From NCBI GenBank assembly GCA_030639305.1, contig DAOWCY010000006.1, positions 16,563-80,562 of the forward strand: a stretch of 64,000 nucleotides of DNA, given 5' to 3'. Origin of the DNA: Candidatus Aminicenantes bacterium. Its GTDB lineage: Bacteria; Acidobacteriota; Aminicenantia; UBA2199. Position numbers and translations under genes: made by a program. Below are positions 5,285-60,744 of the stretch, one piece after another. Every line of letters begins with the position of its first letter. The first letter of the stretch is position 1. The notes under the pieces were generated by a model. It was given only the letters and a program-made list of their open reading frames with translations, did no database searches and was not told where the DNA came from.

Positions 5285-5683
5285 CTAAGAATCGTCCTTT
5301 TCCGCGAAACCTTTCAACCAGGCTAAGGCTTTCTCTTCATCGGTAAAAAGTTTGGCATGATAGGCCGGTTTGCCTAATTTTATAAAAAGATTTCCGGTCA
5401 CTTTCGCCAAAGGGGAGACAGCGATTATGGCTGCGGCTTTCAGCAGCTTCGCTGCTTCTTCCGATGCGCCGTAATCCCGCGTTTTTTTGTCCGATGTTTT
5501 GATGCCTGCGATATCGAATAGCACCCGATTCTGATCATGGCCGCTTAACTGTTTATAAGACCTGGTAAGCTCCCGGATTTGTTCGATATTGATCCTTGTG
5601 TGGGGGGTGATCGATACCCGGATGATACCGTCTTCCCCTATCCAAAGTTTTGCGAAATCAAATTCGATTACTTTTTTCTTCAT
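5285..5683 (-). CDS. STAS/SpoIIAA-like domain protein, paralog 1 of 4 (the most divergent)
   Basis: 132 aa. Shares the ...SP(V/L)xKVxGNxF(L/I)xLxKP...KLFT(S/D)EEKAxxWL C-terminal signature with the three downstream paralogs. Family assignment is from recollection of the SpoIIAA-like STAS family. Confidence 0.55.
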   Translation of the reverse strand: MKKKVIEFDFAKLWIGEDGIIRVSITPHTRINIEQIRELTRSYKQLSGHDQNRVLFDIAGIKTSDKKTRDYGASEEAAKLLKAAAIIAVSPLAKVTGNLFIKLGKPAYHAKLFTDEEKALAWLKGFAEKDDS

Positions 5684-5704
5684 TTTTACACCTACTTATG
5701 TACT

Positions 5705-6103
5705 TTAAGACTCCTTTTTGTCGATAAATCCCCGCAGCCAGGATAATGCTTTTTCCTTCGAAGTGAACAACTTCGTGGGAAAGGGCGTCTTATTAATTCC
5801 TAAGAAAAAATTCCCGATCACCCTGCTTACCGGCGAACCGATTAAAAAAGCTTGAGCTAAAGCAGCTTTTAGGGCTTTCTCACTGGAAACATATGATCTC
5901 GCTTCCCGGGTTATATATTTCACTTCTCTTATATCCACAAGGACGGGAGATATTTTACCGCCAATAACATTATACACGGCTGCAGCGTTTTCTTTCATTT
6001 CGGCAAGCGCTATTTCAGCGTTAGGCGAATGCTCCACACAGCAGATATTTTCTTCGTTCAACCAAACCTTAGCAGTTTTTGTTTCGATTACTTCGCTCTT
6101 CAT
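5705..6103 (-). CDS. STAS/SpoIIAA-like domain protein, paralog 2
   Basis: 132 aa, MKSEVIETKTAKVWL...GSPVSRVIGNFFLGINKTPFPTKLFTSKEKALSWLRGF. Roughly 50–60% identical to paralogs 3 and 4. Confidence 0.6.
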   Translation of the reverse strand: MKSEVIETKTAKVWLNEENICCVEHSPNAEIALAEMKENAAAVYNVIGGKISPVLVDIREVKYITREARSYVSSEKALKAALAQAFLIGSPVSRVIGNFFLGINKTPFPTKLFTSKEKALSWLRGFIDKKES

Positions 6104-6128
6104 TCTCTCACATCCTTAATACAAACCA

Positions 6129-6530
6129 TTAGTTTTCCTCCTGCTCCAGGAATGTTTTTAACCATTCTACCGCTTTTTCCTCCGAAGTGAACAACTTAAT
6201 AGGATGGGTCGGGGGTTTATTTAATCCTAAGAAAAAATTCCCGACCACCTTGCTTACCGGCGAACCGGTTAAAAGGGCAGCGGCAGCAGTGACTTTTTCC
6301 ATTTCCCGGCCTGAAGGATATAATCTCGCCTCCCGGGTCATATATTTAACTTTTCTTATATCGATAAAGATAAGAGCTTTTTTGCCGCCAACGACGTTAT
6401 ACGTGGCAGCAACATTTTTTTTCATGTCATCGAGCGTTATTTCAACATCAGGCAATAGCTCCACATGACAGATATTGTCTCTACTCAACCAAATCTTAGT
6501 AGTGCTTGTCTCTGTCACTTCGTTCTTCAT
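6129..6530 (-). CDS. STAS/SpoIIAA-like domain protein, paralog 3
   Basis: 133 aa, MKNEVTETSTTKIWL...GSPVSKVVGNFFLGLNKPPTHPIKLFTSEEKAVEWLKTF. Confidence 0.6.
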   Translation of the reverse strand: MKNEVTETSTTKIWLSRDNICHVELLPDVEITLDDMKKNVAATYNVVGGKKALIFIDIRKVKYMTREARLYPSGREMEKVTAAAALLTGSPVSKVVGNFFLGLNKPPTHPIKLFTSEEKAVEWLKTFLEQEEN

Positions 6531-6555
6531 TCTCTCTCCTCCTTAATACAAACCA

Positions 6556-6951
6556 TTAGTTCTCCTCCTGCTCCAGGAACGATTTTAACCACGCGGTCGC
6601 TTTTTCTTCCGAATTAAACATCCTGGAAGGGAACCGGGGCTTGTTGATGGCCATGAAAAAATTCCCGATCACCTTGCTTACCGGCGAAGTCACCAGGAGA
6701 GCCAGGACTGTGTGAATCTTTTCCGCCTCCTCGCCGGATAAATGCCTCCTGGCGTCCCGGTCTATGGACTTAATAGTCCTGATATCGGTCAGCACCGGGG
6801 TTTTTTTGCCCCCGGTAAGTTTGGCATGGATTTTGAGATGTTCCCTGGCTAATCCGAGATCCATTTCGGCGTTGGGGTGGGTCTCGGAATGAAAAATACC
6901 GTCTTCCAACCACAGTTTGGCTCCTTTTGTTTCGATTACTTCGCTCTTCAT
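6556..6951 (-). CDS. STAS/SpoIIAA-like domain protein, paralog 4. The track start at 6975 adds MPKEEEKE; MKSEV at 6951 matches the paralogs and follows a GAGGAGG Shine-Dalgarno.
   Basis: MKSEVIETKGAKLWL...TSPVSKVIGNFFMAINKPRFPSRMFNSEEKATAWLKSF. Confidence 0.6.
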   Translation of the reverse strand: MKSEVIETKGAKLWLEDGIFHSETHPNAEMDLGLAREHLKIHAKLTGGKKTPVLTDIRTIKSIDRDARRHLSGEEAEKIHTVLALLVTSPVSKVIGNFFMAINKPRFPSRMFNSEEKATAWLKSFLEQEEN

Positions 6952-7185
6952 TTCTTTTTCCTCCTCTTTCGGCATAAATGCCGGACCGCATAAGAGAGCC
7001 GCTTAAGACTCTACATGGCACTCCTACCTCTACTGTTGGGTGAAAATCCTGTTCCGGTGTAACGATAATTTAGCGTTTTGGAGTGTACGACTCTATTTTA
7101 AAAGAAATCTTTCAAGAATTCAATATGTTTGTTGATTTTTTTTTCATAAACCGGTTTTTCTATCGCTTTTCCCCAAATTTGAATC

Positions 7186-8896: not shown

Positions 8897-9015
8897 ACCT
8901 CCGGCGGCCCTGCCGGGGGCCAAACTTTTGTAAAAGTTTGATCAAAACTTTTGATTAGCGATACGCTTTTCTGCTTTGAGGAACGTTCTTCGTTTGCACC
9001 GCGTCCCGGGGCCTA
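8897..9015. repeat. Intergenic modular repeat element, orientation 1 (GCCTCCGGCGGCCCTGCCGGGGGCCAAACTTTTG.AAAAGTTTGATCAAAACTTTTG...)
   Basis: Matches the family seen about 20 times in this window. Contains the GATC-centred palindrome AAAGTTTGATCAAAACTTT. Confidence 0.8.
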
Positions 9016-9951: not shown

Positions 9952-10519
9952 TTATAAAATTTTTTCTAAGATTTTATAAACTTCGGTTGAGGTTCCTTTG
10001 AGTTTCCCCGACTTCTTGTTCTCTTCATCGAGCTTTTTGGCATTCTCTATCGCCTTGTTTAAATTCTTTTTTAACATTTCGTAGAAATTTTTCTTTTTTT
10101 GATAGTTTTGTGATTTTTGATAATCGGGGATATATTTCTTTAGTTCATGGGTGATGAGGCCGGCGCAGTTATTAAATTCTTTGGCTGTAAATTTATAATG
10201 CAGTAAGAACCATATCTCGAAGCAGGGAGTTGAGATAATAAATTCGATTTTAGGCCCTTGTTTTAAATCGCCTTGCTTTAATGCATCACCGTCTACAATA
10301 CAGAATGCCATGTCATAGTCCCGTTCTTTCTGTTTCTTTTTTGCATATTTCCGACGGCGTTGACCTTTTGGGATTGTATATGTCTATTTTTATATTTGAC
10401 AGCCTTTCCTTTCTTTTTAAATTCTCAAAGTAAATTTTTTCACATGAGCCTTCGCATACAACCAGGAAAGTACTCTTTAAAGGGCGATATTTCTTTCTTC
10501 TCTTAAAATCTTTACTCAC
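9952..10519 (-). pseudogene. RloB-like (AbiLii-like, TOPRIM-related) protein split by a 1-nt frameshift near 10311-10315
   Basis: Upstream piece (10313..10519) has LVVCEGSCEKIYF, an RloB-type CEGxxTExxYF N-terminus. Downstream piece (9952..10311) continues in another frame. Reading that frame upstream gives ERDYDMAFCIVDGD, which contains the family acidic motif, so the two ORFs were one gene. Confidence 0.55.
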
Positions 10520-11813
10520 TTAAAATATTCCCCAATACAGGCAGAGCACCGTAAGCACCGTTTAGATAACCGTTCTTAATGGATTTGTCTTTGCGCGGTT
10601 TCGGTTTAAAATCGGTAAGAGAGAATAACTCGGTGCTGCCGTCTTCTTTTTTTTCGGTAAACCAGATTTCGTCCCGGCGCAGCAACCTGTCTTCCAGCAG
10701 TTGGACATTATGGCTGGTAAATATAATTTGGGCTTCCGTTGAATTTTTAAAAAATTCCGCGAGCAATTTTTTTTGCAGGTCGAAATGGAGCGAGTCTTCG
10801 AGTTCATCGACAATTAAAACACCACCTTGCTCGATTATATCGAGCAGGGGGCCTGCCAATTCGAATATCCTGACGGTACCCTTGGATTCATTCATGAAGT
10901 CGATGTTTGCCGTGACTTCATTATTATCGGAAATCGCACTGTGGATCATTTCTATGTCGAAAATCTTGCCTTCTTCTACTTCTTTTTTTACTTCATCCGG
11001 AAATTTATCGAAATCGGTGAATTGTTCTTTTTTCAGTTTTTCAACTTTAACATCATTTATTCCTAAATCGGCTGATTTTAAGAGAGAAACGACTTTCTTT
11101 TTTTGATTATCGCTTTCTTCGATAAAATTCAAAGTGAATACAGTCAATCCCCTTGTCCCCTGAGCGATTCCCGGTCTCAAGAATCCCAAAAACCAGGAAA
11201 AAACTCTTTCAAGAATAGGGTGAGCAAATTGGGCGCCCACCGTTAAATATAAAGAATCCCGCCTGGTTAAGGACTCTATTTTTTTCTTTTCTCCTTTAAA
11301 ATTATTGCCGAATTTGTGGGTGTACCGGGGTTTTTTTTCTTCGGAAGCGGATAGCTCGAGGTTCTTTTCCTCAACTATCTTTCGCTCAAACAGGAGCACT
11401 TTTTTTTTACCAGGGTAAAAATAGAGCCACTCTTCTATTACTTTTTCCCTGTCTATCTTGAAACCATAAATATATTTTTTTTTCTTTAGGATAAAAGCGG
11501 CTTCAAAAAATCCCGGTTCATCCTGGGTCTTTCGATCTAACTTAAATGGCTCATGACCGGTTTTTTTTCTCATTTTTTCCCCGGAAGTAGACTCGATTAT
11601 AAAATTTCTCATGAAAAAAAGCGCCTGGAGTAAATTCGATTTGCCGGAAGCATTGGCGCCGAAAATAGCAGCAGACTTCAGGAGTTTTAGATTTACTCCA
11701 GTCGGTTCTATACAGTGGGTCTGCTCCATCTCTGTATCCTTGTCGGCAATCATACTCAACTGCTGCCTGCCTTTAAAAGACAAGAAATTCTCGACCTCGA
11801 ATCGAATCAACAT
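10512..11813 (-). CDS. AAA_21-type ABC/SMC-like ATPase (RloA/AbiLi-like)
   Basis: MLIRFEVENFLSFKG...FGANASGKSNLLQAL Walker A. C-terminal VLIVDELEDSLHFDLQKKLL...IIFTSHN Walker B/D-loop. Overlaps the RloB-like ORF start by 8 nt. Start set at ATG 11813 (MLIRFEV). Confidence 0.7.
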   Translation of the reverse strand: MLIRFEVENFLSFKGRQQLSMIADKDTEMEQTHCIEPTGVNLKLLKSAAIFGANASGKSNLLQALFFMRNFIIESTSGEKMRKKTGHEPFKLDRKTQDEPGFFEAAFILKKKKYIYGFKIDREKVIEEWLYFYPGKKKVLLFERKIVEEKNLELSASEEKKPRYTHKFGNNFKGEKKKIESLTRRDSLYLTVGAQFAHPILERVFSWFLGFLRPGIAQGTRGLTVFTLNFIEESDNQKKKVVSLLKSADLGINDVKVEKLKKEQFTDFDKFPDEVKKEVEEGKIFDIEMIHSAISDNNEVTANIDFMNESKGTVRIFELAGPLLDIIEQGGVLIVDELEDSLHFDLQKKLLAEFFKNSTEAQIIFTSHNVQLLEDRLLRRDEIWFTEKKEDGSTELFSLTDFKPKPRKDKSIKNGYLNGAYGALPVLGNILSE

Positions 11814-12033
11814 GATTCCTCCTTTTTTTATGGTATTATACACCATTTTTTGTGATTTTTCCACAAAAACAACCGTTTTTTTTGAGATTCGGGGCATTTT
11901 TTTTATTTCGTTGTCTTCATTTTTTTAATTCTTCGATATTCGATATTCGGAGTTCGCTGTTCGATATTCTACCCGGTGTTCACTTTTTACAGCCTCTTTT
12001 TTTACCGGGAAACAGGAATTTTTTCGATAACTC

Positions 12034-12062
12034 TTGACAAAGAGGGAATAATTTCTTATATT
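12034..12062 (+). promoter_or_regulatory. Sigma70-like promoter: TTGACA, 17 nt spacer, TATATT. An AGGAGG Shine-Dalgarno follows 8 nt before ATG 12090.
   Basis: cTTGACAaagagggaataatttctTATATTgtatactattaaccAGGAGGaaaaattATG. Confidence 0.5.
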
Positions 12063-12089
12063 GTATACTATTAACCAGGAGGAAAAATT

Positions 12090-14174
12090 ATGAAAAGTTT
12101 TTCAAGTGAACACTTAAGAAATATCGCTTTAATAGGACACGGCTCTACCGGGAAAACAAGCCTCGTTTCCGCTGTCCTTTTCAATACCCAGATGATCAAC
12201 AGGCTGGCTAAAGTTGAGCAGGGTAATACAGTTACCGACTACGACGAAGATGAAATCGAAAAAAAAATATCTATCCAGGCCGCTGTCGCCTTTGCCCACA
12301 AAGATAAATACAAAATCAATATGATAGACACACCGGGTTTTGCTAATTTTATCTGGGAAGCAAGGGTCGGTTTGAGGGCGGTTGAGACCGGGGTCATGCT
12401 GGTCAGCGCCACCGAAGGCGTGGAAGTGCAGACGGAAAAGATTTTCGAATACGCCGAAGAATTAAATAAATCGATGATCTTTGTGATTAATAAAATGACC
12501 AAAGAGTTTGCCGATTTCGACAAAGCCTTCGATTCCATCGTCGAGTCTTTCGGGAAGAACGCCGTGCCGGTGCAATACCCAATAGGCAGCGGAGCCGATT
12601 TTACCGGCGTCATCGACGTGATCGAGATGAAAGCTTATAAGTACAGCGGCGATGAAAAAGGCGATTTCGAAGAGACGGAGATTCCCGCTGACTTAAAAGA
12701 CACCCTGCAAGCAAAACGGGAAGAGTTGATCGAAAAAATTGCCGAAAATGATGAAGCATTAATGGAAAAATATTTCGAGGATGGCGATTTGAGTCTCGAA
12801 GATATCGCTGTCGGGCTAAAAGCGGGTATATTGAACAGGAATATTTTCCCGGTACTGGTTACCGACGCCCTGACCAATATCGGGGTCAACCACTTCGTTG
12901 ATTTTGTCACAAAGTATACTCCCTCTATAATCGACGTGGGAGAAACAGCGGCAGTAGAAGGAACCGTGAAACCGGACCAGGCAGCGCCTTTTTCGTCATT
13001 TGTCTTTAAGACCATCTCGGATCCTTATACCGGCAAAATATCGTTAATAAAAGTGCTCTCCGGTGTGTTTAAACCGGATAGTTCTTATGTGAATGTCAAT
13101 AAAGAGGCCAGCGAGAGAGTTGGCGGACTATTTTTCCTGCAGGGTAAAGAGCAGGCTTCGGGAGGAGACGTCCACCCCGGCGATATCGTAGCTGTGGCCA
13201 AATTAAAAGAGACCCAGACCGGCGATACTTTAACCGTTAAAGGCAATGATGTCCGTTTCCCGGAGATAAAATTCCCCATCCCCTCCATCTCTTTTGCAAT
13301 CGAACCCAAGACCCGTGAAGATGAGAACAAAATATCCGTGGCTTTCCAGAAAATTTGCGAAGAGGACCCCACGATTAAATCTTTAAGGGATCCCCAGACC
13401 AAAGAGCTGGTAATTTCCGGCAATGGTCAACTGCATGTGGAACTTGTGGTAAACAAGTTGAAAAAGAGGTACGGCGTAGAGGTAGAAATGAAACCGCCGC
13501 GTATTCCTTATCTGGAAACTATCAGCGGCAAAGCCGACGTCAATATAAAACATAAAAAACAGAGCGGCGGTCGCGGTCAATATGGCCATGTCATGATCAA
13601 GATGGATCCCCAGCCCAGGGGTTCCGGTTTCGTATTCGAGGATACCATTTTTGGCGGTTCTATCCCAAAGAACTATATTCCCGCTGTGGAAAAGGGGATC
13701 AGGGAAGTCATACACAGCGGCATTTTGGCCGGATACCAGGTGGTGGATTTCAAAGTTAATCTTTATGACGGCAGTTATCATGATGTCGATTCTTCCGATA
13801 TGGCTTTTAAGATTGCCGCTTCCAAAGCTTTTAAGCAAGGCATGAAAGAAGCCAAACCCACTTTATTGGAACCCATCGTAAAAGTAGAAGTTGTCACTCC
13901 CGAGGAATTTATGGGTGATATAAACGGTAATCTCAGCGGCCGGCGGGGTAAGATTCAGGGTATGTCGTCGAAAGGCAAGAATACTATAATCAACGCCATG
14001 GTGCCTATGGTAGAGATGTTGGATTTTAATCCCAACCTTATTTCCATCACCGGCGGCAGGGGTTCTTACTTCATGGAATTCGATCATTATGAAGAGGTCC
14101 CGGCCCATCTGCAGACCAGGATAATCGCGGATGCCAGGAAAGAAGGTCGCGTCAGGGAAGTTGAAGAAGAGTGA
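12090..14174 (+). CDS. Elongation factor G family GTPase (EF-G paralog with variant P-loop)
   Basis: 694 aa with EF-G domain order and motifs (DTPGFANF, INKMTKEF, ...). The G1 box is GHGSTGKTS rather than the canonical AHIDAGKTT, which suggests an EF-G2-type paralog. Confidence 0.8.
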   Translation: MKSFSSEHLRNIALIGHGSTGKTSLVSAVLFNTQMINRLAKVEQGNTVTDYDEDEIEKKISIQAAVAFAHKDKYKINMIDTPGFANFIWEARVGLRAVETGVMLVSATEGVEVQTEKIFEYAEELNKSMIFVINKMTKEFADFDKAFDSIVESFGKNAVPVQYPIGSGADFTGVIDVIEMKAYKYSGDEKGDFEETEIPADLKDTLQAKREELIEKIAENDEALMEKYFEDGDLSLEDIAVGLKAGILNRNIFPVLVTDALTNIGVNHFVDFVTKYTPSIIDVGETAAVEGTVKPDQAAPFSSFVFKTISDPYTGKISLIKVLSGVFKPDSSYVNVNKEASERVGGLFFLQGKEQASGGDVHPGDIVAVAKLKETQTGDTLTVKGNDVRFPEIKFPIPSISFAIEPKTREDENKISVAFQKICEEDPTIKSLRDPQTKELVISGNGQLHVELVVNKLKKRYGVEVEMKPPRIPYLETISGKADVNIKHKKQSGGRGQYGHVMIKMDPQPRGSGFVFEDTIFGGSIPKNYIPAVEKGIREVIHSGILAGYQVVDFKVNLYDGSYHDVDSSDMAFKIAASKAFKQGMKEAKPTLLEPIVKVEVVTPEEFMGDINGNLSGRRGKIQGMSSKGKNTIINAMVPMVEMLDFNPNLISITGGRGSYFMEFDHYEEVPAHLQTRIIADARKEGRVREVEEE

Positions 14175-16408: not shown

Positions 16409-16642
16409 ATGTCATTAACAGTGGATCAGATATATAATGAAGCGATTCAACTTCCTGATGAATCGAAGGTATTTTTGACTGAACGTCTTGTCGAATATTT
16501 GGAAACCAATATAGACCCTAACCTGGAACTCTTACATATAGAAACCGCAAAAAGGCGCAGGGATGACATTCGCTCAGGGCGGGTTCAACCGGTAGAGGGA
16601 AAAGAAGCGTTGGCCCATGTGCGGCGTGTAGTAAAGGGATGA
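16409..16642 (+). CDS. Putative addiction-module antitoxin (TIGR02574-like)
   Basis: 77 aa. A 4-nt ATGA overlap with the downstream ParE/RelE-like toxin. ...AIQLPDESKVFLTERLVEYLE...RRRDDIRSG pattern. Confidence 0.55.
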   Translation: MSLTVDQIYNEAIQLPDESKVFLTERLVEYLETNIDPNLELLHIETAKRRRDDIRSGRVQPVEGKEALAHVRRVVKG

Positions 16643-16938
16643 GATATATTTTTCACCCGGAAGCGCTCCGGGAATATGAGGAAACTGCTTTATATTATGG
16701 CGAAGTATCTGCTGCATTAGCTGAGGCTTTTATTAAATCCATGGAAAAGGGTATCGAGCAAATACTTGATTTCCCCGGAGCATGGCAGTTAGTTGAAGAA
16801 GATGTTCGCCGCCACCTGCTGCACCGTTTCCCTTTTGGGATATACTATACTATCGAAGAAGATTATATTATGATAGTGGCAGTAACGCACATGAGCCGCA
16901 ATCCAGGGTATTGGAAAAATCGTCTAAAAGCAAGATAA
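16639..16938 (+). CDS. Type II toxin-antitoxin system RelE/ParE family toxin
   Basis: 99 aa. ...FPGAWQLVEEDVRRHLLHRFPFGIYYTIEEDYIMIVAVTHMSRNP is typical of ParE/RelE plasmid-stabilization toxins. Confidence 0.65.
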   Translation: MRYIFHPEALREYEETALYYGEVSAALAEAFIKSMEKGIEQILDFPGAWQLVEEDVRRHLLHRFPFGIYYTIEEDYIMIVAVTHMSRNPGYWKNRLKAR

Positions 16939-21654: not shown

Positions 21655-21720
21655 ACAAAAGTTTTGATCAAACTTTTTCAAAAGTTTGGCCCCCGGCAGG
21701 GCCGCCCAATCCTGTGTCTT
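21596..21720. repeat. Modular repeat element (orientation 2) overlapping the 3' ends of two convergent genes
   Basis: ...CAGGGGCAGCGTGTGAGCGCTTTTGATTTTAAATAAACAAAAGTTTTGATCAAACTTTTTCAAAAGTTTGGCCCCCGGCAGGGCCGCC. Confidence 0.8.
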
Positions 21721-26669: not shown

Positions 26670-26800
26670 GCCCCACATGCGTGGGGGAGCGTTGAGCCGC
26701 TTCGCGGCAGAGCAGCGTTTTTGATTCTAAATTATAAAAAGTTTTGATCAAACTTTTTCAAAAGTTTGGCCCCCGGCAGGGTCGCCGAAGGCAAAGAAAT
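26670..26800. repeat. Full-length modular repeat element (orientation 2), reference copy
   Basis: CCCCACATGCGTGGGGG-AGCGTTGAGCCGCTTCGCGGCAGAGCAGCGTTTTTGATTCTAAATTATAAAAAGTTTTGATCAAACTTTTTCAAAAGTTTGGCCCCCGGCAGGGTCGCCGAAGGCAAAG. Confidence 0.85.
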
Positions 26801-33404: not shown

Positions 33405-33680
33405 GCTCTTGCCTCCGGCGGCCCCTGCCGGGGAGGCCAAACTTTTAAAAAAGTTTGATCAAAACTTTTTATAATTTAAAATCAAAAGCGCTCACACGCT
33501 GCCTCTTGCGGCGAAGCCGCTTATACCCTGCCCACGTGGTGGGGTGCCTCCGGCGGCCCTGCCGGGGGCCAAACTTTTGAAAAAGTTTGATCAAAACTTT
33601 TGTTTATTTAGAAGCAAAAGCGCTCACACGCTGCGAAGCGGCTTATCGCCTCCCCGTGCGCACGGGGTTAAAATCCAAAG
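33405..33680. repeat. Two tandem copies of the modular repeat element (orientation 1)
   Basis: GCCTCCGGCGGCCC.TGCCGGGG.GGCCAAACTTTT.AAAAAGTTTGATCAAAACTTTT...AAAAGCGCTCACACGCTGC...GCGAAGC(C/G)GCTTAT appears twice in a row, ending in the CCCCGTGCGCACGGGG hairpin. Confidence 0.8.
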
Positions 33681-37039: not shown

Positions 37040-37320
37040 AAATAAAAGAAATTGCAAGCCTCCGGCAGGGGGGCAGCGCGCCCAACATCTTAGCCTCCGG
37101 CGGCCCTGCCGGGGGCCAAACTTTTGAAAAAGTTTGATCAAAACTTCTTATGATTTAGAATCAAAAGCGCTCACACGCTGCTTCTTGCGGCGAAGCCGCT
37201 TATTGCCTCCCCACGCAGTGGGGCTTTTGAAAAAGTTTGATCAAAACTTCTTATGATTTAGAATCAAAAGCGCCTCTTGCGGCGAAGCGGCTTATTGCCT
37301 CCCCGTGCGCACGGGGTTAG
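37040..37320. repeat. About 1.5–2 tandem copies of the modular repeat element (orientation 1)
   Basis: GCCTCCGGCGGCCCTGCCGGGGGCCAAACTTTTGAAAAAGTTTGATCAAAACTTCTTATGATTTAGAATCAAAAGCGCTCACACGCTGC..., then a second partial copy ending CCCCGTGCGCACGGGG. Confidence 0.8.
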
Positions 37321-45659: not shown

Positions 45660-45745
45660 AGACTTGCCTCCGGCGGCCCTGCCGGGGGCCAAATTTTTGA
45701 AAAAGTTTGAACAAAACTTTTGTTTAAAAAAGCGAAAAACCCCCT
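45660..45745. repeat. Partial modular repeat element (orientation 1)
   Basis: GCCTCCGGCGGCCCTGCCGGGGGCCAAATTTTTGAAAAAGTTTGAACAAAACTTTTG. Confidence 0.75.
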
Positions 45746-48517: not shown

Positions 48518-48665
48518 CCCCGTGCGCACGGGGAGGCGATAAGCGGCTTCGCCGCATGGGGCAGCGTGTGAGCGTTTTTGATTCTAACTCATAAAAAGTT
48601 TTGATCAAACTTTTTCAAAAGTTTGGCCCCCGGCAGGGCCGGCGGCGGCGGTGAATTCTGGATAA
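48515..48665. repeat. Full modular repeat element (orientation 2)
   Basis: CCCCGTGCGCACGGGGAGGCGATAAGCGGCTTCGCCGCATGGGGCAGCGTGTGAGCGTTTTTGATTCTAACTCATAAAAAGTTTTGATCAAACTTTTTCAAAAGTTTGGCCCCCGGCAGGGCCGGCGG. Confidence 0.85.
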
Positions 48666-53899: not shown

Positions 53900-54060
53900 G
53901 GTTGTTTTTTTTGGTCGATCCCCACTCGCGTGGGGAGGCTATGAGCGGCTTCGCCGCAAGAGGCAGCGTGTGAGCGCTTTTGATTTTAAATAATAAGAAG
54001 TTTTGATCAAACTTTTACAAAAGTTTGGCCCCCGGCAGGGCCGCCGGAGGCAAGGATGGG
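53900..54060. repeat. Full modular repeat element (orientation 2)
   Basis: CCCCACTCGCGTGGGGAGGCTATGAGCGGCTTCGCCGCAAGAGGCAGCGTGTGAGCGCTTTTGATTTTAAATAATAAGAAGTTTTGATCAAACTTTTACAAAAGTTTGGCCCCCGGCAGGGCCGCCGGAGGCAAGG. Confidence 0.85.
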
Positions 54061-54072
54061 GCTGAATGCTTA

Positions 54073-56001
54073 TTATACCCACAGCAGCAGTTCGGTTAGT
54101 TCTTTTTTTCCTAACTGCGCCTTCGGCCCCAAACGCACCTGCACTACCCCTTCTTTGTCTTCAGATACGATGCGGCGCAGTTCGGTGGTCACCACCCGCA
54201 TACGGTCATAAGTAGATAAATCAAAACTGCGCCGCCTATCGAAAGCACTCTTCCTATATCCCGGCGGCGGCGGCAGTTCTACCGCTTCGTTAATATTTCC
54301 GGCAAAATCTTCACGGCTGCTGATTTGCCCGCCTTCGAAGCAGAGCAGGATTCGCTTTTTTTCTTTGCCCACCGACTCCTGCCAAAAGAGTGTCGATTCG
54401 CTCAAAAGAGAAAACCAGCGCGAACGCCGCAGCAGGTGAGCGCCATGGCGGATAATGCCTTCCAGCATCGACGCTGCCGCTTCAGGCGTCCAAACTTTCT
54501 CTTCTTTTTCATCCTCCGCGGAGCTGCCGTTCTCATCTATTTCCGTGCTGTTTTTTCCCTCTTCTTCGAGCCCGGCTGCGGCCAGTTCTTTTAATTTGCG
54601 GCGGCTCAGTTCCTTGCCCAAAAGCAGCACCCTGTTAACAATATTCCCCGGAGGTATCATACTTGTCTGTCCCTGTTTAGCCTCATCAAATTGGCCTGTC
54701 CCCAAAAACTCATCATGCTCCCGGTAAAACAACTCGACCCCCTGCAAAAAAACCTCCAAACCGGGGGCATACTCTTCGGGAATCCCCAATAATTCAGCAC
54801 AAAAATTATTTTTTGCCTCCGGCGGCCTTGCCGGGGGCCAAACTTTTGAAAAAGTTTGAACAAAACTTTTATTTAATTTAGCCTGAAATTGGCCTGTCCC
54901 CTTTTCGAGCAACTCGATAATACCGGCCAGGGATTGCAGCGTTTGTACCGAAACTACCGGGCCAAGACGGTACACCTTATCCACTCCGGGAGCAGATTGT
55001 CGCAAATCCGAAGAAAAATAAAAAAGCCGCCGCTCCCCTTTCCGCAACGCTGCATTATAAGGCGGCGAGTGTTTTTTGATCTCATCAGATTCCAGCAAAG
55101 CAGCTTCTAAAGCCGATCCGGTCACCGTAATATCTAATTTATTGGCCTGGGTCAACATCTCTAAAGTGCGTTCAGAATGTTTGGCGCTCTTACGGAAATA
55201 ACTACCCACCCGCTGCTTCAAAGACGTTGCTTTGCCGATATAAAGCAGGTCGCCGTTGGAACGCAGCATCCGGTAAACACCGGGCAAGCCGGGCAAACCG
55301 CTTCGTTCCTTCGCCGCCATGGGGTAAACCCTTCCGGCGGAACCGGCCCCGGAAACAGCGGGTGGAGCTTCCAGCCATTCCCGCAGTTCCGGCAAGGTGC
55401 GGACGCCCCGCTGCTCTAAAAGTTTAACCGTTTCTTTCCAGGTGAAATTAGTGGCTTCGATGTGAGAGGCGCTGCGGCGCAGTTCAGGCACCGAATACCC
55501 CAAATAACCGGCTGCTGCCCGCAGACCTTTGCGAGGCAATTGAGGCAGCAGGCGTTTGATCACCCGGTGGGTACAAATAATCTCGAAAGGAAAAGGTTTT
55601 CCGGGCGACCATTTTTGATGCATTTCCCTGAGATAAGGTTCCTCGAAACGGGCAAAATGAATCACCGTAGGGCATAGTCCTCTTTTATTGGCTGCCGCTG
55701 TTCTTTTTACCGCCCGAAACAGTTTTTTCCAAGCTTTTTTGGGGGGCAGGCCGCGGGCCGCGTCCTCCGCAGAAATGCCGGTGATGCGTTTTACCGCGGT
55801 AGGGATGATTTCGTCATGCGGCAGTTTGATGAGATAAGAGGTGATTTTTTCGTTATTTTCCCGGCTTGAAGCCCGCACCCTGGCCCAGCCGATTTCCAGC
55901 AGACGCCCTTTTGCCGGGTTAGAACCGGTAGCCTGGCAGTCTACTATTAATACTTCCAGGCTGGATAACAGGTTTTCTTTTTTGAGATTCGATACTCGCA
56001 T
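54073..56001 (-). CDS. DnaQ-like 3'-5' exonuclease domain fused to a GIY-YIG (Cho/UvrC-like) nuclease domain. Carries an in-frame repeat-derived segment.
   Basis: N-terminal LEVLIVDCQATGSNPAKGRLLEIGW (DEDD exonuclease motif I). GIY-YIG GVYRMLRSNGDLLYIGKATSLKQRVGSYF. Residues ...LNKSFVQTFSKVWPPARPPEAKNNF... are the translation (revcomp) of repeat module 54815-54880. Confidence 0.65.
   Translation of the reverse strand: MRVSNLKKENLLSSLEVLIVDCQATGSNPAKGRLLEIGWARVRASSRENNEKITSYLIKLPHDEIIPTAVKRITGISAEDAARGLPPKKAWKKLFRAVKRTAAANKRGLCPTVIHFARFEEPYLREMHQKWSPGKPFPFEIICTHRVIKRLLPQLPRKGLRAAAGYLGYSVPELRRSASHIEATNFTWKETVKLLEQRGVRTLPELREWLEAPPAVSGAGSAGRVYPMAAKERSGLPGLPGVYRMLRSNGDLLYIGKATSLKQRVGSYFRKSAKHSERTLEMLTQANKLDITVTGSALEAALLESDEIKKHSPPYNAALRKGERRLFYFSSDLRQSAPGVDKVYRLGPVVSVQTLQSLAGIIELLEKGTGQFQAKLNKSFVQTFSKVWPPARPPEAKNNFCAELLGIPEEYAPGLEVFLQGVELFYREHDEFLGTGQFDEAKQGQTSMIPPGNIVNRVLLLGKELSRRKLKELAAAGLEEEGKNSTEIDENGSSAEDEKEEKVWTPEAAASMLEGIIRHGAHLLRRSRWFSLLSESTLFWQESVGKEKKRILLCFEGGQISSREDFAGNINEAVELPPPPGYRKSAFDRRRSFDLSTYDRMRVVTTELRRIVSEDKEGVVQVRLGPKAQLGKKELTELLLWV
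54815..54880. repeat. Repeat module (orientation 1) lying in-frame inside CDS 54073..56001
   Basis: GCCTCCGGCGGCCTTGCCGGGGGCCAAACTTTTGAAAAAGTTTGAACAAAACTTTT. Confidence 0.7.
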
Positions 56002-56639: not shown

Positions 56640-56830
56640 CCCATGCCTTCGGCGACCCTGCCGGGGGGGGCGGCGCACCTATGGATTATTTTTTTCTTGC
56701 CTTCGGCGACCCTGCCGGGGGCCAAACTTTTGAAAAAGTTTGAACAAAACTTTTTATAATTTAAAAGCAAAAGCACCAGCCTGCCGCGAAGCGGCTTATT
56801 GCCTCCCCACGCGAGTGGGGCCACGCCGCG
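56640..56830. repeat. Modular repeat element, about 1.5 copies (orientation 1)
   Basis: GCCTTCGGCGACCCTGCCGGGGG appears twice, then CCAAACTTTTGAAAAAGTTTGAACAAAACTTTTTATAATTTAAAAGCAAAAGCACCAGCCTGCCGCGAAGCGGCTTATTGCCTCCCCACGCGAGTGGGG. Confidence 0.8.
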
Positions 56831-56833
56831 GGC

Positions 56834-57991
56834 CTACGGTTGGGGCGGCCTGGGGATAACAACCTTGAACTGCTCTCCCTCGATGTCATTGTAAAACTCG
56901 ATGTCGGGCTGCTCTTTCAGCGCTTTAATTATTCCCGAACCCAATCCCCGGTACGGCAGCATCTTACTGGCAAAAGATGCGATTAACGAATTCCTTATGG
57001 CTGAATTACCATACTTTATGTTTTCAACTGTTAGAGAATTGGGCAGCGCTCCGGGGCTTATTATTTCGATGCGATTATCGAAAATCAATAACCTTATGGA
57101 GGCAACCTTAAAGTAATCCCGGTGAATGAGTGCATTCTGTAATAACTCCTGGAGAGCAACTTTAGAAACTTCCAGGATGCCCAGGCTGTTGAAATCCTGC
57201 CCCTGCTGAGTTTTATGCAAATTTTTTAATAAAAAAGACATCACTTTTTCAAATTGACTGCCGATGTCACCTTCGATATCTTCACTGTCCCTGTATTCCG
57301 TATCAGCCAGGGAATTACCGAAAAAACTGACCGCTTTTATAATAAAAACACGTAAGAACCTCGCCGGTTCTTTGCCGAAAAGAAGCAGCCCGGCCAGGTT
57401 AAGATTGCCGTCCCTGGCTAAATGGAGATTTTCCAGTAATTTCTCCATGGGGATTTCCATCTCGTCAAGTGTTTTCTCATACACTTTCTTGAAATAATTG
57501 TTGAATTTTTCCCGGTCTAAATCGTTAATAGTTGCGCCTTCTACAGGCATATGATCCGCCAATAATTTCCTGCTTTGCTGGAACAAACGCTGCATCTCCT
57601 CCGGCGCGGTAACTTTGCGTTTATCCGAACCGTTTTTGACCCAGTAAATGCCGTCGTTATCGCAGTAAGGCTTATTGACGCCTTCCCGGACATACACAAC
57701 GATCAATTTTTCCCCTTCGATGGTAAAGTTTTCAGTGATTACATTGACGGCCGGCCTGATATTATTGGTAGTGGCATTGGCGATATATTGATTAATCCGG
57801 CCTATTTCCACGGCACTTAGACCTTTTATCCCCCCTCTATCTGTAACCCCGATAATAATTTTCCCGCCCCGGGAATTGGAAAAGGCTGCGATTTCCTCGC
57901 CCAACTTTTTTGCGCCGGTTATTGTCTCTTTAAACTGGTGCCTACTGTCTTCACCGTTGTCTATTATTTCAAGTAATTCTAATTCTTCCAT
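56834..57991 (-). CDS. AlbA_2 (Schlafen-like divergent AAA) plus HATPase_c_4 domain protein (often annotated as an ATP-dependent DNA-binding/transcriptional regulator)
   Basis: N-terminal ...EDSRHQFKETI...EIAAFSNSRGGKIIIGVTDRGGIKGL (AlbA_2 signature). C-terminal ...LQELLQNALIHRDY (HATPase_c_4-like). Its start overlaps the stop of the upstream PHP-ATPase gene by 13 nt. Confidence 0.65.
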   Translation of the reverse strand: MEELELLEIIDNGEDSRHQFKETITGAKKLGEEIAAFSNSRGGKIIIGVTDRGGIKGLSAVEIGRINQYIANATTNNIRPAVNVITENFTIEGEKLIVVYVREGVNKPYCDNDGIYWVKNGSDKRKVTAPEEMQRLFQQSRKLLADHMPVEGATINDLDREKFNNYFKKVYEKTLDEMEIPMEKLLENLHLARDGNLNLAGLLLFGKEPARFLRVFIIKAVSFFGNSLADTEYRDSEDIEGDIGSQFEKVMSFLLKNLHKTQQGQDFNSLGILEVSKVALQELLQNALIHRDYFKVASIRLLIFDNRIEIISPGALPNSLTVENIKYGNSAIRNSLIASFASKMLPYRGLGSGIIKALKEQPDIEFYNDIEGEQFKVVIPRPPQP

Positions 57992-60615
57992 AGTTCGTAT
58001 ATCCTTTTTCTTTTGTCAAATGCCTCTTCGCCGCCTTCCATTACGTTTACGATTTCATCTTGAATGGATTTCCTATCGATGCTGCCTGTTTTTAAGTGGA
58101 TGGAATTTTCCGAATAACTGCATTGTAGAACTTGCTCGCACTCACCCAGCACCGGGATGTTGGGGTTATGCGTGGCGAAAATAAATTGAGTTTGCTGTTT
58201 CAGCTTGGTCAATTCTTTGATAACGTCATTATAAAGAGACTGGTTGTCCAGGTCGTCTTCGGGCTGGTCGATTATAATAATCTCGTGGTCTTTCTTTGCC
58301 AGGATAAAAACAATAAATGCAGACGCCCGCTGACCTAAAGAATGCTTGCTTAATTCCTTTTGATTATAATATAGTTCTACTTTATCCGGTACCCGGAAAG
58401 TTAAAAAATGGTCGCGTATGTCTTCAATACGTTCCTTGAACCGGAGCAGCAAGCTGCCTTCCGTTCCGGTTAGTATTTTTTCCAAAGAGCTATCCTTTTT
58501 AAAAAGATCGTCGTAAATGTCAATGGGGTCCCGGTAAGATTCACAAATTTTTTTTATATGGTTCGCCGACAGGTAGGTGCCTTTAAAATTATTTTTAAAA
58601 AAGTTCTCGAAAGCCTCTTTGTCCTCTTTGAATTCGATTTTTATCTTAATCGATAAATCCTTCTCTTTCAATCGGTCGGTCTCTTCTTTTAATAACAGAA
58701 ATTCCTTGTGCCGGAGGTCTTTCAAGTCCTGAAGGGAATCCTGAAGCCATCTTTTTAATCGGCTGAGTTCTTGCGATTTTTTCTCCAACTGCGATAGAGT
58801 GGCCTTAACGATAGTCAGCCTGTTGTTGAAATTTATAAAATCGTCGGCATTCAATGTGGGCAAATCGATTTTTCGTCTGATTTGGGCAAATTCTTCCTGA
58901 AGTTCGGCATTTAACCGGTGAAATTCCTCTTTGATTTCTTTTAATTTCGTGAGATATTCTTTTCCCTGGTGGGCAAGGCTGTCGATCTCAATGAATTTTT
59001 TATGGAATGCACGCAAGCTTTTTTTTATCTTTTCAAACAGGCTTTCATTGCCGGGACTTTTGTATTCCAAGTAGTGATCGAAACTTCCTTTATGCTCATC
59101 TATAATCCCGGTTAGGTCGTCAACTATTGTTTGTAGAAAATCGATTATCTCTTCGAGTTTATCCCGATCCCGGTTAAAATCAACCTGCCGCTGCAGTTTC
59201 TCGTCAACTTTATGTTCCTTGAATTTTCTTAATTTTTCTTCAATATTACTTTTTTCTTCCAGCAATTCATCTCTCTTCTTTATTTTTTCTTTCAGGATAT
59301 TTATGCTGTTTAAGGTTCTTATAATATCTTGTTCTTTATCGAAAACCTGTTTCCTCACCTCTTTGACTTCATTTTTATCTCCGAAAAACTTTTCGATCAA
59401 ATCCCCGGCAAACCCTTTGCCGCCGATTTCCGACAGGTCCTTCTGGCCGAAATATAGAACATCGACAAGCCCACCGGCTATCTTCATGGTGGGCACCCTA
59501 TTCTCACCGCGAAATATTTGCGGTTTCTCTTTGTGAATTTTTTCAATCCTATATTTTTCTCCATGTCGATCGACGATATTAACTACTATTTTTCCACCGC
59601 TGCCGAGTAGGTTGTTTACTAAATCATCTTTATACTCTTTGTCTTTCGATTGTTTGTCAAATTTGTAGTCCAGGGCGCACCGTATCGCTTCCAGCAGAGT
59701 CGATTTACCGCTGCCCCTTATGCCGATCAAGTTGTTCATATCGGGATTCAAATGAACGGTCTGCCCGTCTAACATCCCGCCGACAAATGAAATATCTTTT
59801 ATGTAACCGTTTTTACGCTTCGGAAAAGATTTCTTAATTCTCGTGGAATTGGCCAGCAGGGCATATTTGACGGCTTCGAAATTAAAATCTCCAATTTTTA
59901 TATAGGTGACTGAATCTCTTTGCCCGATATCATCGAGCGTTTTGGGATCGGAGCCATCCAAAAAGGCAGGTAATTTGTCGCTTCCATAGATTTCGATAAT
60001 CTCTTCCTTTGATTTGTCACTCTCCAGCTTTTGGAAGCCGATTACATGGTCCTTAAACAGGGGTTCACTGTAGATACCTCTCTCCCTGATCCCCCTGGCG
60101 GTTTCCTTGAAGAACCCTTTATCCCGGTCCACATGAGCCAAAATGATAAAATAACCGGCACGGAATTCATTTAACCTTTTAATAGTTTGCATCAATTTCT
60201 CTTCTGTGTTTCCGTCAGGTTTAATCGGTTTTGTTCCGAATGTTCCATTAAGAAATTTTTCGATATTGTTGATGTTTTTCTTATCGTCTACCCACGCTTC
60301 ATAATCGAAAACAACTAAAGTATGAATCCCGTTTTTTCCGTCCCCCACGTTCAATTCTACACCGGGTAATAGGAAAACGTCTCTTTTCCAGGCTTTTTTT
60401 CTCAATTCTTTAAATTCATCGTGGTAAAAACGATTGTGATTGGTGATTACCCCGACATTGATTTTTTGTTCTTCCAGCTTATCTAAAAAACGATTAAAAA
60501 AATCATTGGGATTATCCTCAAATTTTATGCCCAAAGGATCTGAAACTGTATGTAGGTGAAAATCAGCCCTCAGCCATTTGCTGCCGGTCTCGAAAAATTT
60601 AATTGTATTTTTCAT
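57979..60615 (-). CDS. PHP-family phosphoesterase domain fused to a RecF/SMC-like ABC ATPase with a long coiled-coil insert
   Basis: N-terminal RADFHLHTVSD and ...ILAHVDRDKG (PHP metal-binding His motifs). Walker [15 protein letters not shown]. About 350 aa of coiled coil. C-terminal Walker B/D-loop IIIIDQPEDDLD and ATHNPNIP. Confidence 0.7.
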   Translation of the reverse strand: MKNTIKFFETGSKWLRADFHLHTVSDPLGIKFEDNPNDFFNRFLDKLEEQKINVGVITNHNRFYHDEFKELRKKAWKRDVFLLPGVELNVGDGKNGIHTLVVFDYEAWVDDKKNINNIEKFLNGTFGTKPIKPDGNTEEKLMQTIKRLNEFRAGYFIILAHVDRDKGFFKETARGIRERGIYSEPLFKDHVIGFQKLESDKSKEEIIEIYGSDKLPAFLDGSDPKTLDDIGQRDSVTYIKIGDFNFEAVKYALLANSTRIKKSFPKRKNGYIKDISFVGGMLDGQTVHLNPDMNNLIGIRGSGKSTLLEAIRCALDYKFDKQSKDKEYKDDLVNNLLGSGGKIVVNIVDRHGEKYRIEKIHKEKPQIFRGENRVPTMKIAGGLVDVLYFGQKDLSEIGGKGFAGDLIEKFFGDKNEVKEVRKQVFDKEQDIIRTLNSINILKEKIKKRDELLEEKSNIEEKLRKFKEHKVDEKLQRQVDFNRDRDKLEEIIDFLQTIVDDLTGIIDEHKGSFDHYLEYKSPGNESLFEKIKKSLRAFHKKFIEIDSLAHQGKEYLTKLKEIKEEFHRLNAELQEEFAQIRRKIDLPTLNADDFINFNNRLTIVKATLSQLEKKSQELSRLKRWLQDSLQDLKDLRHKEFLLLKEETDRLKEKDLSIKIKIEFKEDKEAFENFFKNNFKGTYLSANHIKKICESYRDPIDIYDDLFKKDSSLEKILTGTEGSLLLRFKERIEDIRDHFLTFRVPDKVELYYNQKELSKHSLGQRASAFIVFILAKKDHEIIIIDQPEDDLDNQSLYNDVIKELTKLKQQTQFIFATHNPNIPVLGECEQVLQCSYSENSIHLKTGSIDRKSIQDEIVNVMEGGEEAFDKRKRIYELWKN

Positions 60616-60744
60616 ATTATTAATATATATACCGAAATGACCTTAAAATCAATACTTTTTATTAATATTATCCGATTTTTTCTAAATCATTGAACGATCC
60701 GCCGTTATTCAGCGGGATTTTGTTTAATTTAAATCCTCTGCTTC

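Follow-up and report, generated by a model that had tools for sequence, protein, structure and literature searches.

An AbiL-type defence module in Candidatus Aminicenantes whose RloB effector gene has probably been broken by an 8-bp repeat-unit deletion

Why is the second gene of an apparent two-gene phage-defence module split between two reading frames in Candidatus Aminicenantes bacterium? The question was raised by a window of 64,000 nt (the whole stretch of DNA analysed, contig DAOWCY010000006.1, from a metagenome assembly), on the minus strand of which the gene for an AAA_21 ATPase is followed by an RloB-like gene that changes frame. An earlier note on this DNA placed a 1-nt frameshift at about 10311-10315 and offered three explanations: a sequencing or assembly error in a homopolymer, real inactivation of a toxic nuclease, or a phase-variable or programmed slip. 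The locus is, with high probability, a chromosomal AbiL-type (RloA/RloB-like) two-gene defence operon of a Candidatus Aminicenantes population, degraded by a real 8-bp deletion.

The nature of the lesion was revealed by a close relative. A protein search with a provisional reconstruction of RloB retrieved P0001 (96% identical), which is encoded on a 915-nt ENA contig (L008) from the sister sample SAMN18200491. DNA of the window and L008 is 96.6% identical over 565 nt, with 11 mismatches and one 8-nt gap, which falls exactly at a perfect tandem AAATATGC AAATATGC. The L008 junction reads ...GTCGG AAATATGC AAATATGC AAAAAAG..., and the window keeps a single AAATATGC (10343..10350, minus strand). 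Which of the two units was deleted is ambiguous and the junction is uncertain within approximately 10343..10351. Re-insertion of the 8-nt unit gives one uninterrupted open reading frame (ORF) of 191 aa, and intact RloB reads ..STPSEICKYAKKKQEERDYDMAFCIVDGD.. across the junction. The two-unit spacing is found in P0001, P0003, P0004 and the orthologs at L070 and L071 (..EICKYAKKKQ.., ..IIDYAKKKQ.., ..LYKYTKRKQ..), more distant orthologs reading ..KIIDYAKKKQKE.., ..EIIDYTRKKQKE.. and ..GLYKYTKRKQKE... As distant orthologs have this spacing, two units is the ancestral state and the window carries the deletion. The frame break described in the earlier note is therefore real, but its size and place were not as supposed: alignment with L008 makes it an 8-bp deletion at 10343..10350, which has the net frame effect of a 1-nt insertion, and the stop codon at 10313..10315 is a downstream consequence of a lesion some 30 nt upstream.

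Two other accounts of the break were tried and rejected. A 1-nt indel in the A6 run was abandoned since removing one A left a three-residue gap relative to every homolog and the L008 DNA showed an 8-nt lesion. A prfB-like +1 shift at CUA-UGA-C was discarded since the second frame already encodes the conserved D-Y preceding DMAFC before that stop is reached, and the orthologs are unbroken.

The L008 contig has a peculiarity of its own. Its 3' part (L008:566-915; ENA SAMN18200491 scaffold_733252) diverges fully from the window at about 10057, approximately 110 nt before the RloB stop, so that P0001 (172 aa, covering Pfam positions 1-164 of 195) lacks the helix AIENAKKL...YKILEKIL, which is conserved at the C-terminus. 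Beyond the truncated RloB comes an unrelated ORF (MMRFFSTAGPIIREDHYF...). Either RloB has been truncated a second time, independently, in the sister strain, or the short contig is chimeric. An exact-match scan of Joint Genome Institute (JGI) metagenomes for the junction flank gave no matches.

The one-unit junction is not peculiar to the window. Contigs were retrieved by exact-protein look-up from ENA assemblies of SAMN18200497, SAMN18200496 and SAMN18200494, from the NCBI metagenome-assembled genome (MAG) GCA_023135565.1 (Candidatus Aminicenantes bacterium) and from the Logan assemblies of SRR13892603 and SRR13892604. All six have the same junction as the window. Contigs L001, L002, L003, L005, L006 and L007 show 100% identity to the window over up to 9.3 kb, while L004 has one mismatch in 8.4 kb and an identical junction. 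As the Logan runs are possibly from the same biosamples as the ENA assemblies, a safe count is three or more biosamples and two or more assembly pipelines. From these sequences the deletion appears to be fixed in the sampled population.

Recurrence of the identical deleted allele in six other assemblies makes an assembly error, the first of the options raised earlier, very unlikely. An artefact that hides an uninterrupted RloB in the organism might be suspected from the metagenomic origin of the window and from the A-rich character of the region, with its short repeats. However, the Logan assemblies that carry the same sequence were built directly from SRR13892603 and SRR13892604, and the difference is the clean loss of an 8-nt repeat unit, atypical of homopolymer error, with no homopolymer miscount. 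Where other ORFs of the window overlap, the pairs tested proved to be distinct genes and not the halves of a split one, indicating that the window assembly is not generally frameshift-ridden. An artefact is thus considered extremely improbable.

Profile searches identified the components of the module. The ATPase (433 aa, 10512..11813, minus strand), an ABC ATPase of AbiLi type which is apparently intact, matches Pfam AAA_21 at 1.3e-36 (profile positions 2-304 of 304) and PADLOC AbiLi at 9.5e-92; its Walker A motif, GANASGKS, is encoded at 11637..11660. A 461-aa ORF starting from 11897 was rejected as a mechanical extension of the 433-aa ORF. An AGGAGG Shine-Dalgarno sequence stands directly before the ATG at 11813, and a putative promoter (TGGAAA-17-TATAAT, 11835..11863, minus strand), identified by consensus match alone, lies 5' of the gene. 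Between the end of the ATPase gene and the GTG that starts RloB there is an 8-nt overlap, GTGAGTAA (10512..10519), which is also present in orthologs L009 and L013 and suggests that translation of the two genes is coupled.

The N-terminal fragment of RloB/AbiLii (68 aa with a GTG start, 10313..10519, minus strand) carries VVCEGSCEKIYF and matches Pfam RloB at 1.1e-5 (profile positions 1-51) and PADLOC AbiLii at 2.2e-6. Alignment to intact orthologs shows that residues 1-61 are authentic and that the final seven residues and the stop are out-of-frame read-through. The CEGSCE motif of this fragment (10439..10456), with near-invariant E23 and invariant G24 and E27 (alignments A1 and A3), belongs to a predicted Toprim-like core. 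The C-terminal reading frame extends from stop to stop over 9952..10383 on the same strand, its authentic part beginning from ..KYAKKKQKERDYD, and carries ...ERDYDMAFCIVDGD...; from its first ATG it encodes a fragment of 119 aa (9952..10311). This fragment matches Pfam RloB at 2.4e-24 (profile positions 69-195) and PADLOC AbiLii at 2.5e-15, and includes the acidic DGD (DxD) motif at 10285..10293, in which D76 and D78 are family-invariant (alignment A1). The restored 191-aa protein matches Pfam RloB along its whole length (6.3e-37, 128 bits, positions 1-195 of 195) and PADLOC AbiLii at 7.2e-26.

Thus, much of what had been read from the letters was borne out: the AAA_21 ATPase at 10512..11813, its overlap with the start of an RloB-like gene bearing a CEG motif, the second frame that restores the part with the acidic motif and, by the Pfam and PADLOC matches of all three ORFs, the AbiLi/AbiLii arrangement. 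The RloB/AbiLii gene lies directly 3' of the ATPase gene on the same strand, and the nucleotide-binding motifs of the ATPase are intact (Walker A, signature, Walker B and H-loop conserved). However, the two components are not both complete ORFs, RloB being split into pieces of 68 and 119 aa. The window locus is accordingly best classed, from its sequence, as a degraded AbiL member and not as a complete system.

What the deletion does to RloB can be judged from an AlphaFold2 model of the intact ortholog P0003 (predicted local distance difference test score, pLDDT, 92.5; predicted template modelling score, pTM, 0.87). In this model the order of elements is beta1 (residues 16-22, ..CEG), alpha1, beta2 (43-48), alpha2 (55-69), beta3 (73-79, ending with DxD), beta4 and a helical C-terminal part. 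A glutamate near beta1 and a DxD after beta3, as in Toprim/OLD-like folds, are both present, but on separate fragments: the deletion falls in alpha2 and parts E23, G24 and E27 in the 68-aa fragment from D76 and D78 in the other. Foldseek gave no significant match, any likeness to OLD and GajA being only at the level of fold, at 10-13% identity. As the break separates the CEG..E glutamate from the DxD in the predicted Toprim/OLD-like fold, the effector has most likely lost its function, which would leave the system inactive.

The ATPase, by comparison with 16 homologs, keeps 44 of 45 near-invariant residues, including Walker A, the signature S310/G312/T313 (S-x-G-T), Walker B D336/E337 and H368, and from its sequence looks functional. 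The same would be expected if the adjacent gene had been damaged only a short time ago. The deletion itself is probably recent, since no other disabling mutation has followed it and two units persist in a strain with 96.6% identity.

A sequence of events can be proposed. In the intact state the first gene would encode the ABC-type AAA_21 ATPase and the second, translationally coupled through the 8-nt overlap, an RloB of about 191 aa with a predicted Toprim/OLD-like nuclease fold. By analogy with PARIS and OLD-family systems, the ATPase may act as infection sensor and scaffold, and RloB as the nuclease effector that halts phage growth; such a division of labour is put forward for AbiL by that analogy. 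One unit of a chance 8-bp tandem duplication in alpha2 of RloB would then have been lost, most plausibly by replication slippage, shifting the frame to a stop 10 codons later and cutting beta1-alpha1-beta2 off from beta3 and the C-terminal helical part. As no repeat remains to slip back, the deletion would in practice be one-way. The loss may have been selected, the nuclease being toxic, or may be neutral decay.

Comparison with orthologous loci showed how the gene is organised elsewhere. RloB is in one frame at all seven orthologous loci examined (L008, L009, L011, L012, L013, L070 and L071), which excludes a conserved programmed frameshift, and in all of these but L008 the orthologous RloB ORFs are seen to begin at the same overlapping GTG. 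A second, N-terminal lesion was suspected in L013, where the gene caller gave 166 aa, but six-frame translation yielded an intact 199-aa ORF from the same GTG. In L009, L011 (JGI) and L013 (Logan) the module is divergent from an EF-G paralog, after which come genes for a metallo-beta-lactamase-fold protein and an ABC ATPase; the window has exactly this arrangement. Amino-acid identity between these syntenic relatives and the window is 81-82% for EF-G, 69-73% for the ATPase and 63-66% for RloB. The neighbours of the module in the window are the EF-G paralog and a SAM hydrolase-like gene, with thiD also near; the flank away from EF-G differs, being SAM hydrolase-like in the window and Cu-oxidase_4 in L009. 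Over the span compared (9952-14174 of the window), the AbiL-type module thus appears to have held one chromosomal position across considerable divergence, which is either unusually stable synteny for a defence module or an insertion hotspot. A scan of GTDB genomes with the ATPase found no close Aminicenantes relative, the best match having 38% identity.

Broken RloB genes are not confined to the window. Among 121 related loci from GTDB genomes and metagenomes, classed with hidden Markov models for both proteins, a full ATPase was accompanied by full RloB at 74, by a frame-split RloB at two (L081 and L115), by a truncated RloB at five and by no RloB downstream at eight; the remainder, with a partial ATPase or too little downstream sequence, were not informative. 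Two more splits of RloB, in L054 and L057, occur where the ATPase match was classed as partial or split. In L054, a distant relative (L054:3120-3230; Bacteroidales MAG JAOZQN010000151.1), the frame shifts at an A9 run (GAAAAAAAAATTATGAT) of the Lys-rich alpha2 linker that carries the deletion in the window; ortholog L009 also has A9 at the place equivalent to the window junction, but there the run is in frame. This Lys-rich stretch of RloB may therefore be prone to indels across the family, or else a place where sequencing errors in MAGs tend to accumulate. As far as these sequences indicate, an intact ATPase with a decayed effector next to it is a recurrent minority state, of which the window would be one more case.

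Could the repeat be a switch, or could a functional RloB still be made from the divided gene? Reversible phase variation, with copy number of the 8-bp unit toggling RloB on and off, would be in keeping with the presence of one-unit and two-unit alleles in metagenomes of the same study, and with the indel-prone character of a linker that is broken at A9 in L054 and has an in-frame A9 in L009. However, one against two copies of an 8-mer is no hypermutable tract of the kind found at contingency loci, the local A-run is only A6 and no repeat is left after the deletion to template re-expansion. Moreover, the two alleles are on haplotypes 3.4% apart and not in one clone, the window haplotype having one unit in all six other assemblies. 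Phase variation is thus very unlikely. Continued expression would depend on +1 ribosomal slippage within the overlap (for example, at AAA-AAA-G), giving a protein three residues shorter in alpha2, or on termination and reinitiation at TGAcATG, giving two fragments that reassemble as a split Toprim. The two frames do overlap by 71 nt (10313..10383), with an A6G stretch within the overlap; the stop of the N-terminal fragment and the ATG of the C-terminal fragment are separated by 1 nt, and neither fragment has further disabling mutations, although the lack of these is expected of a recent event. Against this, no ortholog is frameshifted here, so there is no conserved recoding signal, and no +1 stimulator could be recognised by eye in the overlap sequence. 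The Met of the C-fragment ATG is not conserved (I or R in orthologs), its upstream GGGA is a weak Shine-Dalgarno-like sequence and the split lies inside the core beta-alpha-beta unit. Functional expression from the divided gene is highly improbable. The slippery-homopolymer, phase-variable or programmed slip proposed earlier accordingly finds little in its favour, the lesion being a repeat-unit deletion near a run of only A6 and the seven orthologous loci having RloB in one frame. Taken together, the proposals that the 8-bp repeat switches a toxic Toprim effector on and off at the level of the population, or that an active RloB, in two pieces or by slippage, is still made from the split gene, merit little credence. 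Were such a switch real, alleles with one and with two units would be found together in one environment, and the Lys-rich linker would be breaking independently in other lineages; were split RloB active, the intact, syntenically conserved ATPase would still be in use.

A further proposal accepts the loss but gives it a purpose: removal of a toxic nuclease was selected and the orphan ATPase was kept as a sensor for another effector or as a decoy. The ATPase still has every catalytic motif and its gene is preceded by a Shine-Dalgarno sequence and a promoter-like site, a full ATPase with broken or absent RloB is seen at about 15 of some 89 informative related loci, and an AbiLii homolog was toxic in E. 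coli and not neutralised by its AbiLi (PMC3985639). However, a recent neutral lesion would equally have left the ATPase intact, the population shows no sequence variation by which selection could be measured and no alternative effector gene is adjacent, the neighbours being the EF-G paralog and the SAM hydrolase-like gene. Such rewiring is unlikely. Real inactivation is the only one of the three original explanations of the break to survive. Some observations weigh against the view that the module was degraded by a real deletion. The sole contig with an intact junction, L008, is short (915 nt), is from another strain and is possibly rearranged or chimeric. A minority two-unit allele may exist within the same population, as allele counts rest on assemblies. 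Loss of function is judged from fold logic, and with N-stop and C-ATG only 1 nt apart (TGAcATG) both fragments could in principle be made.

For annotation, a degraded AbiL-type module means that the locus is to be described as one with a pseudogenised effector, where public MAG annotation implies two separate 'RloB domain-containing' genes. It would also be a clean example of the loss of a defence effector, in which deletion of an 8-bp tandem-repeat unit is fixed across samples and a sister strain keeps the intact junction. Beyond annotation the case has little importance, being that of a recent pseudogene in a system of known kind. Modest additions are the occurrence of an AbiL-type module at one chromosomal position beside an EF-G paralog across Aminicenantes-like lineages in which EF-G is only about 81% identical, and the finding that approximately one-sixth of related loci combine a full-length ATPase with an RloB that is broken or absent.

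Several other features of the window were recorded. An interspersed repeat of about 55 nt, AAAGTTTTGATCAAACTTTT[A/T]CAAAAGTTTGGCCCCCGGCAGGGCCGCCGGAGG, is present in at least 11 copies in the 64 kb, in both orientations and with 90-100% identity (8898-8953, 21656-21706, 26737-26787, 33407-33469, 33547-33602, 37094-37146, 45667-45722, 48594-48641, 53998-54050, 54816-54870 and 56694-56754). It resembles repetitive extragenic palindromic (REP) sequences or miniature inverted-repeat transposable elements (MITEs), and two of its segments look capable of forming hairpins. One copy is just downstream of the SAM hydrolase-like gene that adjoins the module. A second candidate defence locus lies about 46 kb away (57979-60642, minus strand) and encodes an 887-aa ATPase of SMC_N/AAA_21 type (PADLOC Ppl, 1.1e-35); the end of its gene is overlapped by that for a 393-aa protein with Schlafen AlbA_2 and HATPase_c_4 domains (56834-58015, minus strand). 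The ORF at 16567-16938 (plus strand) matches the ParE toxin family (PF05016, 4.8e-10). Four tandem paralogous ORFs of about 131-148 aa occupy 5285-7002 (minus strand); one of these (6556-7002) is DUF7793 (8.4e-33), and gene calls on L001 and L004 give DUF7793 for three of the four.

How does the module compare with known systems? AbiL has been grouped with PARIS, OLD and Gabija among systems that combine an ABC ATPase with a TOPRIM protein, although, according to reviews, the mechanism is still to be tested and it is not settled whether AbiL and RloAB work as PARIS does (PMC11464382, PMC13064643). In Lactococcus lactis, AbiL acts against Ceduovirus (c2-type) phage at a stage after transcription. 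Neither trigger nor target of AbiL has been established (PMC13064643). In E. coli, AbiLii of Fusobacterium nucleatum proved toxic and was not neutralised by its cognate AbiLi (PMC3985639). In OLD-family nucleases and Gabija GajA the ATPase and Toprim are fused, whereas the window has one protein for the ATPase and another for the Toprim-like part. PARIS consists of the ABC ATPase AriA and the Toprim nuclease AriB; in contrast, the window effector is RloB (PF13707) and not DUF4435/AriB, no match to DUF4435 or AriB being found for it in Pfam or PADLOC, and the AbiLi match of the ATPase is far stronger than its AriA match. As in Campylobacter jejuni RloA/RloB (PF13707), an RloB, here matched along its full length once restored, is paired with an AAA ATPase. 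The C. jejuni genes are restriction-linked ORFs, but the window module is not linked to type I restriction-modification and has housekeeping neighbours (EF-G paralog, SAM hydrolase-like and thiD). The closest GTDB relatives of the window ATPase (Clostridium and others) are 35-38% identical. Compared with the AbiL of L. lactis, which is on a plasmid, the window module is chromosomal in an Aminicenantes MAG and its AbiLii gene is disrupted, so that the system as encoded is incomplete. In gene order and orientation, however, it is the same as the L. lactis AbiL of the PADLOC model, an AAA_21 ATPase followed by a small RloB-family protein, and the best PADLOC matches of its proteins are AbiLi and AbiLii.

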